A program made the translations under genes and the position numbers. DNA of 33,083 bases from an uncultured Actinomycetota bacterium (GTDB lineage Bacteria > Actinomycetota > Geothermincolia > Geothermincolales > RBG-13-55-18): assembly GCA_964354675.1 (NCBI GenBank), contig CAYHAT010000001.1, positions 1-33,083 of the forward strand. The letters run 5' to 3'. Under the pieces are notes generated by a model. It had not been told where the DNA came from. It saw only the letters and a list, made by a program, of their open reading frames with translations, and made no database searches. This document shows, one piece after another, positions 16,980 through 32,114 of the stretch (positions within the stretch are counted from its first letter, which is position 1; the number at the start of each line of letters is the position of its first letter).

Positions 16980-17209
16980 CCGTACATCGCAGTGTGGCGT
17001 CTCTCCGAAGCCTTTCCAGGCTTATCCCCCCGCAACACGTTACGTCCATGCAGGAAGCGGATTACCTTATCCCGCGTTTCCGGTAACCAACCACGAAGTG
17101 ATCTTTGCTCGAATTGCTCAAACATATATCGGGATTTGACCTACCACATGATAATGAGAAAATCTCTCGTCGCTTCCCTTTCCTATATACTTTGGAGGTC
17201 TTCATATAA

Positions 17210-17378
17210 GGTTCTTCTCCGAGAAGTGTGGGTAGCGGGAGATGATAACTGGGGCAACACTTTGGGGTCAGACCTCAAAAATCTGCCTCTCCACCCGCCA
17301 CAGCTATGTTAATCGTCGCAAACATGAGAGGCAATTTTTGAGGTCTGACCCCAAAGTGTTGCTTCTCGGAGAAGAACC
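17210..17378. repeat. Nested long hairpin element, family A, copy 1
   Basis: Outer inverted repeat 17210-17226 / 17362-17378. Inner arms 17254-17291 / 17326-17362 (about 37 bp with one bulged C). 34-nt loop at 17292-17325. 27-nt one-sided internal loop at 17227-17253. Confidence 0.75.
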
Positions 17379-17393
17379 CAGCAACATGTAAGC

Positions 17394-17421
17394 TTGATTT
17401 TTCCTGGATTTGGGGTATAAT
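17394..17421 (+). promoter_or_regulatory. Strong sigma-70-type promoter (TTGATT-16 nt-TATAAT)
   Basis: TTGATT at 17394-17399 and TATAAT at 17416-17421, in an AT-rich patch. Confidence 0.6.
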
Positions 17422-17427
17422 TTATAC

Positions 17428-17549
17428 GATTGCAATAGAAACAACCATTCGAAAGGGAAGCGAAGATCCGTAGCGCGTGACGTGGTCACCTGAGTTGCGG
17501 GGAGCTAATGGTGAAACCGGCCCGATCGTTCAACACGGTCGGGCTTTTT
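17428..17549 (+). ncRNA. Candidate riboswitch aptamer or small RNA ending in an intrinsic terminator
   Basis: Nested helices: ACCAUU 17444-17449 / AAUGGU 17507-17512; CCGUAGC 17468-17474 / GUUGCGG 17494-17500; GUGAC 17477-17481 / GUCAC 17485-17489. Terminator stem 17520-17528 / 17536-17544 is followed by UUUUU at 17545-17549. Confidence 0.5.
17520..17549 (+). terminator. Rho-independent terminator
   Basis: 9-bp stem GCCCGAUCG / CGGUCGGGC (one G-U pair), 7-nt loop UUCAACA, then a five-U run. Confidence 0.7.
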
Positions 17550-17815
17550 CATACAAGGTCAAGCAGGCAAAAGAGGTTAGAGACAAAGGAGAGGACGCAA
17601 GAAGGGGTAGAAGGGCTGGAAAAGGGGCAGGCTTTCCGGTCTTGACCAGGACTTACTCGGCGTAGAGATCTGGTTCAGATTCTGGAGACATCACCTCCCC
17701 CTCTTCCCGGGACCGTCAGACGGAGCTCTTTTTCGCCTTACGCCCACAAGATCGAGAGGCGCGCTGTAATTGCGTCCCTACTGACGAGAAGGGCAAAAAA
17801 GCGGAGGTGACATTC

Positions 17816-20800
17816 ATGAGAAAATCGACCAAGTGGCTGGCCCTCGTCTCCATCACGGTATTGGTAGTGTTGACGCTTCTGGGCGGTATCGTTTCTGCAC
17901 TGGCTGGGAACGACAACGTACCGCCCGTCGTTGAACAGACCGTGATGGCCGAGGGAGTGGCGGGTGCTGCGCCGGTGCAGGAAGTGATTCCGCCAGCGGA
18001 GGAACCCGTGGTAGAGGATGGGGCCGAGGCGCTGGCCCCCGCAACGGAGATCCTAGCAGATCCGGCGGGGGGTGGGGATCTCGTCGAGGCTCCCGCCACC
18101 GATACGCCGGTGATCGAGCCGGACGCAGGTACCCAGTGTAAAGGCAAGATCTGCGTCATCAAGTTCCTCGACACGAACGAGAACAGCGAGATAGATGGCG
18201 GCGAGATCGGTATGGCCGGGGTCACCATCACCCTCAACGGAGGGAACGCCAAACAGACCGGCAATGACGGCAAGGTCTGCTATGACGACCTCAATCCCGG
18301 TGAATACACTGTGAGTGAGATCGTCCCTACCGGCTACCATGCCACCACCCAGACCTCCTACTGCATAAAAATCTGCTGGGAAGATTGTGTGACGGTATAC
18401 TTCGGCAATGCCCCGAACATCGTGCTCAAGGGCTCCATCTCCGGCCATAAGTGGCTGGACCCGAACGGCGACGGCTCGTACGAGGACAAGACCCCGCTGG
18501 AGGGAGTGCCCATCGAGCTGTGGAAGGATAACACATTCTTCGACTCAACGACCACCGCATCAGACGGGAGCTACTCATTCACCGACCTCGAGCCGGGTAA
18601 TTATACCGTCAAGGAGATCTCCCCGGCAGGCATGGTCCCCATCCCGCCGGACAGCATAGACGTCACTTTGGCCGAGGGCCAGAACGAAACCGGCAAGGAT
18701 TTCTACAACAAGTACAAAGTGGTACTCAAGGGCTCCATCTCCGGCCACAAGTACGCGGATTACGACTGGGACGGAGAGCATGACCCCGGCGAGCCCGGTA
18801 AGGGCGGCGTGATCATCAAGCTCTTCAAGGATGGAGGCATGGTCGCGGAGACCACTACCGCCTCGGATGGCTCATACTCGTTTGACCAGCTCGCCGACGG
18901 GTCGTATACGGTAGAGGAGACGGTGCCCACCTATTGGAAGAACTCCTCCCCCATCAGCCTGGACGTGACCGTCGCGGATGGATCCCAGGTAACGGGGGTG
19001 GACTTCCACAATTACTGCGACTCCGGCGTGGTGGAGGTGATCTCCTTCTGGGACAAGGACTGCAACGGCAAGGGAGGGGACGACGTACAACTGGCCGGGG
19101 TCACCGTGCAGCTCATCCACAAGAAGGGTGGCGTATGGGTGCCCGCCGACGGGTACGACGGTTCTTCCCAGAAGACCACGGCTCCCGGCTGGTCCTACCC
19201 GCCCATATGGATGCCCATTCCCACCTGGTACGACGCGGTCACCGGATGGAACAACCTGCCGTGTAACGATGGAAGCGGAGTGGCCTGGTACGACGTCAAC
19301 GTCATCAGCATTCCGGACGGATGGACTCTCAGCGAGAAGTGGCCCACGGGTCCGTACGCGCTCAAGTGCGAGTCCATCTATTGCCGGTGGCAGCGGGTGG
19401 AGATCTACCTGACGCCCAAGTTCCACATCAACGGCCACAAGTACGAGGATAAAAACTGCAATGGCGTGATCGACGCCGGGGACACAGGCGTGCCGGGAGT
19501 GGAGGTCAAGCTCTTCAAGTGGAACGAGGGGAGCGACACCTACGAGTACGTGAAGTCGACCACCACCGCTGGCGCCAATGGCTACTACGAGTTCACCGGG
19601 CTTCTGCCGGGTACCTACAAGGTGCAGGAGATCCTCACCGCGGAGCTGCTCGAGGACTGGTTTATCGTCAGCCCCGCCGGGGGCGTGTACGAGGGCGTCG
19701 CGGTCTCGTGCGGCAGCAGCATCGAGAATAAAGACTTCCTCAACGCCCGCTACGGAGCCATCTCCGGCCATAAGTACGAGGATAAGAACTGCAATGGCGT
19801 GATCGACGCCGGGGACACAGGCGTGCCGGGAGTGGAGGTCAAGCTCTTCAAGTGGAACGAGGGGAGCGACACCTACGAGTACGTGAAGTCGACCACCACC
19901 GCTGGCGCCAATGGCTACTACGAGTTCACCGGGCTTCTGCCGGGTACCTACAAGGTGCAGGAGATCCTCACCGCGGAGCTGCTCGAGGACTGGTTTATCG
20001 TCAGCCCCGCCGGGGGCGTGTACGAGGGCGTCGCGGTCTCGTGCGGCAGCAGCATCGAGAATAAAGACTTCCTCAACGCCCGCTACGGAGCCATCGAGGG
20101 CTGGAAGTACTGGGATAAGGACGAGAACGGCATCATGGACGGAGAAGACGAGGGCCTGGCAGGCGTGACTATCATCCTCACGCCCGAGGTAGGTCCATCC
20201 CAGACCGCGGTGACCGACGAGGACGGGTATTTCTTCTTCGATAAACTGCTGCCCGGTAAGTATACGGTCAGCGTGGACGAGTCTACGGCCCCCGATTACT
20301 ATCCCATAAGCGCCACCTCCATCGAGGTGGAGGTGACCTGTGGAAAGACGACAAAAGTCTACTTCTCCGAGGCTCCCTACGGCTCCATCTCCGGCAAGAA
20401 GTGGCTCGACGCCGACTTCGACGGCATATGGGGCGAGGACGAGACGGTGGTCATCGAGGGCATCACCATCAAGCTCTACGCCGGCAACCCGCCGCAGGAG
20501 CTCATCGGCACGCAAGTGACCGGCGAGGATGGGTACTACGAGTTCACCGGCCTCCAGCCCGGGACCTATACCGTCGTGGAGGAGGGCAAGGAGGGTTACT
20601 TCTCCTGCACCCCCGACAGCGTACTGGTCGAGCTCTCGGCGGGAGAGGGCGCCGTGGTAGACTTCGGCAACTGCCCTTACGGGCGCATCGAGGGATTGAA
20701 GTTCCTCGACCTCGACGGTGACGGAGCCCAGGATCCGGGCGAGCCCACCCTGGAGGGCGTGGAGATCACCCTCGTAGGTCTCGGCGACGTCGGTGCCATG

Positions 20801-21430
20801 GCCGTGGCCACCACGGGCAAGGACGGCACCTTCGTCTTCAAGAACCTGCTGCCGGGTGAATATTCTGTGGAGGAAAAGGTGCCCTCCGGCTACTACGCCA
20901 CGCGGCCTATAAAGGTCGAGGTGGTCGTGGGACCGGGTGAGAGCGTGTCGGTGATCTTCGCCAACGCTCTCTACGGCTCCATCCTCGGGAACAAGTGGCT
21001 GGACGACGGCGACAGCCAACTCGACCCGACGAAGGACAAGCCCAAGGCGGGTATGACCGTCAAGCTCACCGGCAAGTCCATCGGCGGCGAAACGGTCAGC
21101 ATGCAGACGACCACTGCGCAGGACGGGAGTTACTCCTTCCTCCTGCTCGAGGCCGGCAGCTATAACGTGACCGAGGTCTACGATCCCCAGAAGATGAAGG
21201 CCATCTCCCCGGACAGCGTCGACGTGACGCTAGCCCCGGGCGGCAAGGCGATCGTGGACTTCCTGAACGTGGAGACCGAGGTGGGAGGCGAAGTAGTGAC
21301 TCCGCCCTCCGGAGAGACGCTTCCCACGACCGGCATGGACCAACTGCCATTGCTCATAGCGGCGGCTATCCTCGTGGTCATCGGCCTGGCTTTCCTGGCC
21401 TTCGGCCTGCGCCGCCGCTACCAGGAATAG
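17816..21430 (+). CDS. LPXTG cell-wall-anchored surface protein with about ten SdrD-B/Cna-B-like (prealbumin-fold) repeat domains; putative Ca-binding adhesin
   Basis: ATG 17816 with GGAGGTGA SD 6 nt upstream. Signal peptide MRKSTKWLALVSITVLVVLTLLGGIVSALA. Repeated W/Y-x-D-x-D/N-x-D/N-G loops and G-x-Y-T/K-V-x-E motifs. C-terminal LPTTG, a hydrophobic helix and an RRRYQE tail. Confidence 0.93.
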   Translation: MRKSTKWLALVSITVLVVLTLLGGIVSALAGNDNVPPVVEQTVMAEGVAGAAPVQEVIPPAEEPVVEDGAEALAPATEILADPAGGGDLVEAPATDTPVIEPDAGTQCKGKICVIKFLDTNENSEIDGGEIGMAGVTITLNGGNAKQTGNDGKVCYDDLNPGEYTVSEIVPTGYHATTQTSYCIKICWEDCVTVYFGNAPNIVLKGSISGHKWLDPNGDGSYEDKTPLEGVPIELWKDNTFFDSTTTASDGSYSFTDLEPGNYTVKEISPAGMVPIPPDSIDVTLAEGQNETGKDFYNKYKVVLKGSISGHKYADYDWDGEHDPGEPGKGGVIIKLFKDGGMVAETTTASDGSYSFDQLADGSYTVEETVPTYWKNSSPISLDVTVADGSQVTGVDFHNYCDSGVVEVISFWDKDCNGKGGDDVQLAGVTVQLIHKKGGVWVPADGYDGSSQKTTAPGWSYPPIWMPIPTWYDAVTGWNNLPCNDGSGVAWYDVNVISIPDGWTLSEKWPTGPYALKCESIYCRWQRVEIYLTPKFHINGHKYEDKNCNGVIDAGDTGVPGVEVKLFKWNEGSDTYEYVKSTTTAGANGYYEFTGLLPGTYKVQEILTAELLEDWFIVSPAGGVYEGVAVSCGSSIENKDFLNARYGAISGHKYEDKNCNGVIDAGDTGVPGVEVKLFKWNEGSDTYEYVKSTTTAGANGYYEFTGLLPGTYKVQEILTAELLEDWFIVSPAGGVYEGVAVSCGSSIENKDFLNARYGAIEGWKYWDKDENGIMDGEDEGLAGVTIILTPEVGPSQTAVTDEDGYFFFDKLLPGKYTVSVDESTAPDYYPISATSIEVEVTCGKTTKVYFSEAPYGSISGKKWLDADFDGIWGEDETVVIEGITIKLYAGNPPQELIGTQVTGEDGYYEFTGLQPGTYTVVEEGKEGYFSCTPDSVLVELSAGEGAVVDFGNCPYGRIEGLKFLDLDGDGAQDPGEPTLEGVEITLVGLGDVGAMAVATTGKDGTFVFKNLLPGEYSVEEKVPSGYYATRPIKVEVVVGPGESVSVIFANALYGSILGNKWLDDGDSQLDPTKDKPKAGMTVKLTGKSIGGETVSMQTTTAQDGSYSFLLLEAGSYNVTEVYDPQKMKAISPDSVDVTLAPGGKAIVDFLNVETEVGGEVVTPPSGETLPTTGMDQLPLLIAAAILVVIGLAFLAFGLRRRYQE
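19432..20095 (+). repeat. Near-perfect in-frame tandem duplication (2 x 333 bp) of one adhesin domain
   Basis: Offset is exactly 333 nt. 19454-19762 is identical to 19787-20095; the only differences are near the 5' edge (19438/19771 and 19453/19786). The encoded 111-aa units are identical after the first residues. Confidence 0.95.
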
Positions 21431-32082: not shown

Positions 32083-32114
32083 GCAACTTTTGAGGTCTGA
32101 CCCCAAAGTGTTGC
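32083..32114. repeat. Solo half-copy of the family A hairpin arm
   Basis: GCAACTTTTGAGGTCTGACCCCAAAGTGTTGC closely matches the right arm of copy 1 (17331-17362). It lies between convergent genes and is itself an imperfect palindrome. Confidence 0.65.

Follow-up and report, generated by a model that had tools for sequence, protein, structure and literature searches.

The RNA encoded upstream of an LPXTG adhesin gene in an uncultured Actinomycetota bacterium is very probably a class II c-di-GMP riboswitch, which lies in the 5′ UTR of this gene and most likely acts as a transcriptional ON switch. Its class membership is shown by covariance model: a cmscan of the whole window (the 33,083-nucleotide stretch of DNA analyzed here, with a G+C content of about 60%) against Rfam 15 returned a single match above gathering score, a full-length hit to RF01786 (c-di-GMP-II) at 17447-17531 on the forward strand. 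The score of 57.7 bits lies only about 4 bits over the curated gathering score of this family. The original prediction had left the RNA in an unassigned class, which the full-length match above gathering score shows to be wrong; of the two c-di-GMP families that it had put forward for comparison, RF01786 is matched with 57.7 against 53.5 bits, and RF01051 (GEMM-I) gave no match in a permissive rescan of 17150-17900 at E ≤ 10. The resemblance of ACCAUUCGAAAG to the Vc2 aptamer, to which attention had also been drawn, is coincidental, since RF01051 is unmatched even at this threshold; kinship with GEMM-I/Vc2 was rejected on the same ground, and the common 12-mer sits in the 5′ strand of P1 here, without structural correspondence. 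The earlier guess that the ligand family is that of c-di-GMP is nevertheless the best-supported one in view of the RF01786 match, and we infer that the ligand is c-di-GMP itself. In clan competition RF01786 is the best-scoring family of clan CL00127 for the window, and every tested feature of the family was found: the score, helices P1, P2 and P3, the k-turn, the pseudoknot, the ligand pocket (with one deviation) and a location in a 5′ UTR with a shared platform. The elements of the region are as follows.

17394-17421, forward strand: sigma-70-type promoter, with -35 TTGATT (17394-17399), a 16-nt spacer and -10 TATAAT (17416-17421).
17447-17531, forward strand: full-length c-di-GMP-II aptamer (RF01786; 57.7 bits, E = 1.8e-10, model positions 1-84 of 84).
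17450-17457, forward strand: P1 5′ strand; CGA (17450-52) and GGG (17455-57) pair with 17526-28 and 17521-23, respectively, with a 2x2 internal loop between them.
17459-17466, forward strand: P2 and k-turn; AGC (17459-61), GAA bulge (17462-64), G17465 and A17466, with the P2 3′ strand GCU at 17504-06.
17468-17500, forward strand: P3 hairpin; 17468-17474 with 17494-17500 (CCGUAGC/GUUGCGG), the loop carrying a pseudoknot strand.
17484-17490, forward strand: pseudoknot 5′ strand GGUCACC in the P3 loop, with partners GGUGA (17510-17514) and CC (17517-17518).
17507-17520, forward strand: joining strand AAUGGUGAAACCGG, comprising the pseudoknot 3′ strand and the pocket positions of crystal structure 3Q3Z C68 (A here), A69, A70, C71, C72, G73 and A74 (G here).
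17519-17549, forward strand: intrinsic terminator; 11-bp stem (17519-29 with 17535-45), loop UCAAC, T-run at 17545-49.
17550-17815, forward strand: leader of 266 nt from terminator to start codon, with a conserved non-coding core at 17590-17680.
17612-22 with 17633-43, forward strand: candidate hairpin HP1, the loop containing GGGCAG.
17644-50 with 17669-75, forward strand: candidate hairpin HP2, the loop containing ACUCGGCGUAGA.
17816-21430, forward strand: the regulated gene; its 1204-aa product is a secreted surface protein anchored by sortase, with SdrD_B/SpaA/Cna_B-type repeats and the sorting signal LPTTG.

The arrangement is that of a 5′ UTR, with the promoter about 20 nt upstream of the aptamer and the adhesin downstream on the same strand. 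The near-consensus promoter of the original prediction, TTGATT-16-TATAAT at 17394-17421, is borne out by a promoter scan, in which it matches 10 of 12 consensus positions, and by the orthologue alignment, in which the -10 TATAAT is invariant. The adhesin ATG at 17816 lies, as had been noted, 267 nt past the end of the terminator at 17549, and is preceded by a Shine-Dalgarno sequence, GGAGGTG (GGAGGUG in the RNA), at 17803-17809. The encoded protein carries a signal peptide and nine SdrD_B stretches, and at its C-terminus LPTTG precedes a hydrophobic segment and RRRYQE. Its gene sits inside an exopolysaccharide gene cluster that encodes a Bac_transf priming transferase, GT2 and GT4 enzymes, a Wzz-like protein, a Polysacc_synt flippase, a Wzy_C polymerase and RmlD; neither a GGDEF/EAL gene nor a sortase gene was found within the 33-kb window. 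The earlier statement that no ORF intervenes before the adhesin is true in substance, because indels of 1 and 4 nt in the orthologues, which are not multiples of three, interrupt the two mechanical ORFs (17477-17665 and 17508-17645) that cross the aptamer and terminator in the ORF list; a small ORF in the leader or aptamer was rejected on this basis. The sequence ATGAGAAAATC is repeated at 17154 and 17816.

Inspection of the aptamer at the nucleotide level reveals the features expected of its class, which combines a k-turn and a pseudoknot and holds its ligand in a triple helix (PMC9495366, PMC7583470, PMC4316175). The k-turn, an established component of the class (PMC9495366, PMC4316175), is recognizable at the sequence level as a 3-nt GAA bulge followed by GA (17465-66) facing G17502 and A17503; G17465 and A17466 should form sheared pairs with A17503 and G17502, respectively. 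The pseudoknot pairs were assigned by complementarity rather than from the crystal structure, and on this assignment U17486-A17514 takes the place of the Rfam consensus pair G39-C67, the change on one side being compensated on the other. The ligand pocket of 3Q3Z is made up of A13, A14, U37, G39, U60, A61, C68, A69, A70, C71, C72, G73 and A74 (PMC7288161). When these nucleotides are mapped with an offset of one (crystal position = Rfam model position + 1), the letters of crystal and model agree at 11 of the 13 positions, and the window likewise retains 11 of the 13 nucleotides; one of its two differences, A74 to G, is the family consensus, and the other is C68 to A (17514), whose pseudoknot partner has also changed, from G to U (17486).

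A protein-guided scan of one genome per GTDB species recovered four adhesin-orthologue loci (55-75% identity), three of them in records labelled Actinomycetota and one in a record labelled 'uncultured bacterium'. All three orthologue loci with upstream DNA carry an RF01786 match at the same place (59.0-63.0 bits), and wherever a related locus extends far enough, aptamer and terminator precede the orthologous adhesin. Conservation in the orthologue alignment covers the aptamer and its terminator as well as the -10 box and the Shine-Dalgarno sequence, and the upstream Wzy_C-type gene is syntenic in these loci. An additional contig (L037) represents essentially the same strain as the window and retains the same sequence. 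Beyond the orthologues, a metagenome search with the pattern GGAGNNANTGGTGAAACCGGCC matched at least 120 stretches. Among the matches listed at least 115 are aptamer-like; a T-run occurs within 53 nt of the pattern match, which marks the aptamer 3′ joining strand, in 96 of 115 aptamers, and downstream ORFs are homologous to the adhesin in 21 of 97, both counts again being among the matches listed.

The original prediction had called for homologues with covarying helices, and covariation was assessed in a gapless alignment of 23 sequences (A3) that had been preselected for P2/P3 pairing and retrieved with a pattern that fixed the 3′ pseudoknot strand. Within this preselected set, 8/8 model pairs of P3 change on both sides, with 95% of cells paired, and 2/3 pairs of P2 show changes on both sides. 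The inner P1 pairing GGG/CCC is nearly invariant in the 23 sequences, and the k-turn GA/GA nucleotides (G19, A20, G56 and A57 of the alignment) are invariant; the seven pseudoknot pairs, whose 3′ side the search pattern had fixed, are compatible in 100% of sequences. Paired cells make up 81% of the total, versus 30-42% with slid partners, and 0/500 shuffles reach the covariation score of the preselected sequences. Two further candidates were set aside. An apparent promoter duplication around an N-run in one locus (L002) is an assembly artefact, a 100-N scaffold gap with duplicated edges. A second, inverted aptamer fragment upstream was treated as a chance occurrence; it has no Rfam match, and MAFFT sets the 17167-17182 stretch opposite orthologue sequence in a part of the alignment that is weak. 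We note that 17167-17182 is 94% complementary to 17451-17466. The other permissive Rfam matches in 17150-17900 were microRNA-like only and were caused by a long upstream inverted repeat.

The minimum free energy (MFE) fold of 17428-17552 contains all three nested helices of the original prediction together with the terminator, at -43.2 kcal/mol (z = -2.2). The energy of this segment alone is only mildly unusual, because 6 of 200 shuffles fold equally well. Of the three helices, CCGUAGC/GUUGCGG stands as P3, the only one that is both conserved and covarying. ACCAUU/AAUGGU (17444-17449 with 17507-17512) is strain-specific, and was rejected as a conserved outer helix, both of its sides differing in the orthologues, whose own MFE folds pair UAUUAGCUC with GAGCUAGUG in a different register. 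GUGAC/GUCAC is not retained across relatives and overlaps a pseudoknot strand; indeed, both of these helices use pseudoknot strands. ACCAUU/AAUGGU may be an OFF-state helix, a role to which conservation lends no support, and the two helices together may describe the ligand-free state in the window strain rather than the aptamer. The secondary structure first proposed is the thermodynamic MFE, nearer to the ligand-free (terminator) state than to the aptamer fold; P1, P2, the k-turn and the pseudoknot are absent from it.

The terminator itself fared better: the element predicted earlier is present at 17519-17549, with 11 stem pairs (7 of them G-C) and a 5-nt loop, and its hairpin is conserved in orthologues and relatives, both arms changing together with compensating substitutions. 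A simple terminator scan is not enriched (2 found versus 1.4 expected from shuffles). The 3′ strand of P1 (17521-28) lies within the terminator 5′ arm (17519-29), and P1 and the terminator are therefore mutually exclusive; it follows that ligand binding should block termination, and the ON direction of the switch is the most likely one. The region thus agrees with the transcription-attenuating leader that had been one of the two original proposals, as a cis-acting, terminator-coupled leader in the 5′ UTR of the LPXTG adhesin. The aptamer state was calculated at -14.2 kcal/mol by nearest-neighbour energies that include neither pseudoknot nor ligand, versus -43.2 kcal/mol for the terminator fold, a difference which implies that the decision would have to be co-transcriptional and ligand-dependent. 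In the mechanism we propose, transcription would start near 17428, as judged from the position of the promoter at 17394-17421, and the nascent RNA at 17447-17531 could fold into the aptamer, with P1, P2, the k-turn, P3 and the pseudoknot that links the P3 loop to the 3′ joining strand. Binding of c-di-GMP would lock P1 and the pseudoknot, prevent formation of the terminator and let RNA polymerase continue through the 266-nt leader into the adhesin gene; in the ligand-free RNA the terminator, which is far more stable, would form, and a transcript of about 122 nt would be released as the OFF-state product. High c-di-GMP would thereby lead to more adhesin, beside an exopolysaccharide gene cluster.

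It is unlikely, but worth weighing, that this is a genuine c-di-GMP-II relic whose switch is impaired in the window strain, giving mostly constitutive termination or a leaky response, with adhesin expression driven mainly by some other input, for which the conserved leader element and an internal start are candidates. The window P1 is weaker than that of the orthologues, which have ACGAU-A-GGG, because two substitutions (AUUCGAAAGGG here versus UCACGAUAGGG there) break P1 pairs; the aptamer states of the orthologues were calculated at -16.8 to -20.3 kcal/mol, and the window has both the lowest aptamer-state stability and the lowest bit score of the four sequences. There is also precedent for such loss, as 5 of 16 c-di-GMP riboswitches of C. 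difficile are non-functional (PMC6366702). Against impairment, the features of the pocket, the k-turn, the pseudoknot and the terminator are all intact, P1 keeps both its inner GGG/CCC and its CGA/UCG pairing, and the near-identical strain represented by L037 keeps the same sequence; moreover, a short or interrupted P1 is common among family members.

That the RNA is a subtype sensing a ligand other than c-di-GMP appears very unlikely. The suspicion arises from the triplet at crystal positions 67-69, which is GAA here (17513-17515) rather than GCA. As judged from two consensus lines, the names of the class II variants appear to refer to these positions, with GCA as the standard and GAG and GCG as the variants. 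The window RNA has the same overall fold as c-di-GMP-II-GAG (RF03169) and c-di-GMP-II-GCG of clan CL00127; C68, a listed pocket nucleotide, is A here, and the RF03169 (GAG) consensus likewise has A in place of C. By analogy, GEMM-I variants that bind cGAMP and the orphan class II GAG and GCG variants could be cited in favor of a different ligand, as could the fact that the GAA subtype is abundant, with at least 120 metagenome matches. RF03169 is the best match of several relatives from metagenomes whose P3 contains a long insertion. However, the change of A69 to G that is common to both named variants is absent from the window, which keeps A at this position; the C68-to-A change is matched by the G-to-U change of its partner, giving an isosteric Watson-Crick pair; and RF01786 scores best in the clan, with the association with a surface adhesin being the classic one for c-di-GMP. 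In view of the compensation of C68-to-A within the pseudoknot and of the classic type of target gene, we regard GAA as a neutral subtype.

The separate sRNA of about 120 nt, offered as the other original proposal, would make the promoter-to-terminator unit an independent trans-acting RNA of about 122 nt that merely happens to lie upstream of the adhesin. In favor of this, the unit comes with a promoter of its own and a strong terminator, the adhesin start lies 267 nt further on, and other bacteria have terminated riboswitch transcripts that can act in trans. We consider an independent sRNA highly improbable and not needed to account for the unit, since the riboswitch in its OFF state is expected to yield a terminated RNA of about 122 nt: the unit is a full-length riboswitch aptamer whose P1 has a strand in common with the terminator, it precedes the orthologous adhesin in all related loci that are long enough, and a promoter scan found no second near-consensus sigma-70 promoter in 17550-17815. 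A new riboswitch or sRNA class, as first envisaged, is scarcely credible given the above-gathering RF01786 match, the orthologue matches and the covarying class-specific features, and nothing is left in its favor after the Rfam test.

With the riboswitch assigned to the c-di-GMP-II class, the leader that follows its terminator contains the less familiar part of the 5′ UTR. Its core at 17590-17680 is conserved to nearly the same degree as the aptamer, with identities of 77% versus 83% for the aptamer and 49% for the distal leader in the four orthologues, and of 63% versus 73% and 33% when 13 sequences are compared. Indels whose lengths are not divisible by three mark this core as non-coding. 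A search with its sequence profile recovered the core in 20 loci, 20/20 of which have a match to the aptamer search pattern, and it is located downstream of that pattern in the loci looked at. No Rfam family was matched by the core (17150-17900, E ≤ 10). In a two-hairpin model fitted to 18 sequences, 75% of cells are paired, versus 28-58% with slid partners, and 10/18 pairs change on both sides; the stems vary (ACCAGG/UCUGGU, ACCAAAA/UUUUGGU, GCUGGAA/UUCCGGC and GCUAAAAC/GUUUUGGC) around the conserved loops GGGCAG and ACUCGGCGUAGA. A crude stem-search test gave a combined p = 2e-5 for HP1, with sequences that are not independent, and p = 0.09 for HP2, which is thus unsupported by this test. 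RNAalifold on the leader yielded 8 pairs at -3.5 kcal/mol, and MFE folds of the full leader were no more stable than shuffles (z = +0.8 and +0.9). The two-hairpin structure is suggestive, not proven. We tentatively raise the possibility that the core is an undescribed structured RNA which, in this uncultured Actinomycetota clade, provides a second input on adhesin expression, for example by binding a protein, an sRNA or a ligand.

Comparison with described systems places the riboswitch close to those of C. difficile, in which all four functional class II switches act in the ON direction, two of them on genes for sortase-dependent adhesins (PMC6366702). Cdi-2-3 (CD2831) and Cdi-2-1 (CD3246) are of the same class, lie upstream of sortase-dependent adhesins and are turned ON by c-di-GMP (PMC6366702, PMC11477304). 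The present case differs from these in its host, an uncultured Actinomycetota lineage of about 60% G+C; in its target, an SdrD_B/Cna_B repeat protein rather than the collagen-binding CD2831 or the thioester-domain protein CD3246; in the pseudoknot pair G40-C68, which is U-A here; and in the long conserved leader after the terminator. Cdi-2-4, upstream of pilA1, is likewise a class II switch with a terminator-based ON logic that terminates without ligand (PMC6366702), while its targets are type IV pilin genes and not an LPXTG adhesin. The same aptamer class is joined to a group I intron in an allosteric ribozyme arrangement (c-di-GMP-II with Intron_gpI) reported only in C. difficile (PMC9481103). 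Such a partner was rejected here, as no group I intron was matched in Rfam in the whole window, nor in 17150-17900 at E ≤ 10, and the leader is only 266 nt long. Tandem class II switches lie upstream of COG4932 surface-anchor genes in Paraclostridium and relatives (PMC9481103); these have the class and target-gene type in common with the window, in which there is a single aptamer and the second conserved leader element is not c-di-GMP-II. Bc2, an ON riboswitch that precedes cap, a collagen adhesion gene of Bacillus thuringiensis, shows c-di-GMP-dependent adhesin read-through (PMC6366702) of the kind that we propose here, and it belongs to a different, unrelated aptamer class, class I (GEMM-I), whose family RF01051 has no match here.

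Taken together, these results resolve a previously unannotated intergenic region of 836 nt into a promoter, a c-di-GMP-II riboswitch, a terminator and a leader. The claim of novelty in the original prediction was wrong, because the class, the kind of target and the logic are all known; the riboswitch is a member of an already described class and a useful annotation, not a new kind of RNA. The c-di-GMP-II class has been described as typical for clostridia and Deinococcus (PMC9495176), and its occurrence with a terminator platform in Actinomycetota-labelled MAGs, as well as in numerous contigs from metagenomes of sediment and soil, widens this range modestly. For the organism, the assignment predicts that a large sortase-anchored adhesin would be made in greater amounts at high c-di-GMP; the location of its gene within an exopolysaccharide cluster fits the classic motile-to-sessile switch. 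If any part of the region opens a new question, it would be the conserved leader element alone, which, if it acts as we tentatively suggest, would make the 5′ UTR of this adhesin a two-module control region.

The leader that separates the riboswitch terminator from the adhesin start codon contains a second conserved block, followed by a pyrimidine tract with two potential pairing partners. These elements, and others flanking or within the c-di-GMP-II aptamer, are located in the window as follows.

17210-17378, near-perfect inverted-repeat element of 169 nt, immediately 5' of the -35 box
17447-17457, 5' strand of aptamer helix P1
17590-17680, leader core, non-coding, conserved in sequence, 3' of the riboswitch terminator
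17691-17705, pyrimidine tract UCACCUCCCCCUCUU
17796-17810, Shine-Dalgarno (SD) region GCGGAGGUGA, complementary to the pyrimidine tract
32086-32114, minus strand, solo third copy of the 29-nt arm of the inverted repeat, with 1 mismatch

Comparison of loci revealed that conservation of the leader core almost reaches that of the aptamer, with counterparts in the three Actinomycetota-type MAG loci that encode an adhesin orthologue (L002 2775-2867; L005 2778-2869; L003 2793-2880), in the compared locus L065 (10855-10947), and in 15 further loci. An Rfam search of the core gave no family matches; it may fold as two hairpins, with the conserved loops GGGCAG and ACUCGGCGUAGA. The purine-rich core is also a second complement of the pyrimidine tract, the first being the SD region about 90 nt downstream. 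The tract is identical in L002 and present in a weaker form in L005 and L065. As read from the sequence, these complementarities could provide an anti-SD/anti-anti-SD logic. In the MFE folds of the leader, however, the SD is not sequestered.

Within the aptamer, the 5' strand of P1 reads AUUCGAAAGGG in the window versus UCACGAUAGGG in all three orthologues (L002 2632-2642, L005 2636-2646, L003 2655-2665). Two substitutions in the window disrupt base pairs that each orthologue retains, and because these pairs are broken the sequence suggests that the riboswitch may be weaker in the window's strain.

The arms of the 169-nt element, of 29 nt and 17 nt, are 100% complementary, and its fold has an energy of -97 kcal/mol (z = -10). 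Upstream of the promoter, the window has about 260 nt more intergenic DNA than L005, and the arm motif was absent from all comparison loci retrieved; the near-identical metagenomic contig L037 begins within the element. The inverted repeat resembles a small insertion of mobile or MITE-like type. An apparent promoter duplication in L002, where an identical 55-nt promoter sequence flanks 100 N on either side (2477-2576), was rejected as a MAG scaffold-gap artefact.

A group of G+C-rich metagenomic aptamers shares the GAA triplet of the window and carries a P3-loop insertion of 76-84 nt (L016 3264-3423; L053 574-724; L061, L054, L007, L100, L080 and L098). These match the orphan variant family RF03169 (c-di-GMP-II-GAG) at 37-47 bits, around its cut-off of 40 bits, and not RF01786, despite lacking the G at position 69 typical of the GAG variant. 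Among the matches listed, many GAA-type aptamers (in L010, L027, L036, L068, L071, L093, L097 and others) are followed, about 78 nt downstream, by a gene for a protein of ~374 aa with no relation to the adhesin; this gene is apparently a second frequent target of the GAA subtype.
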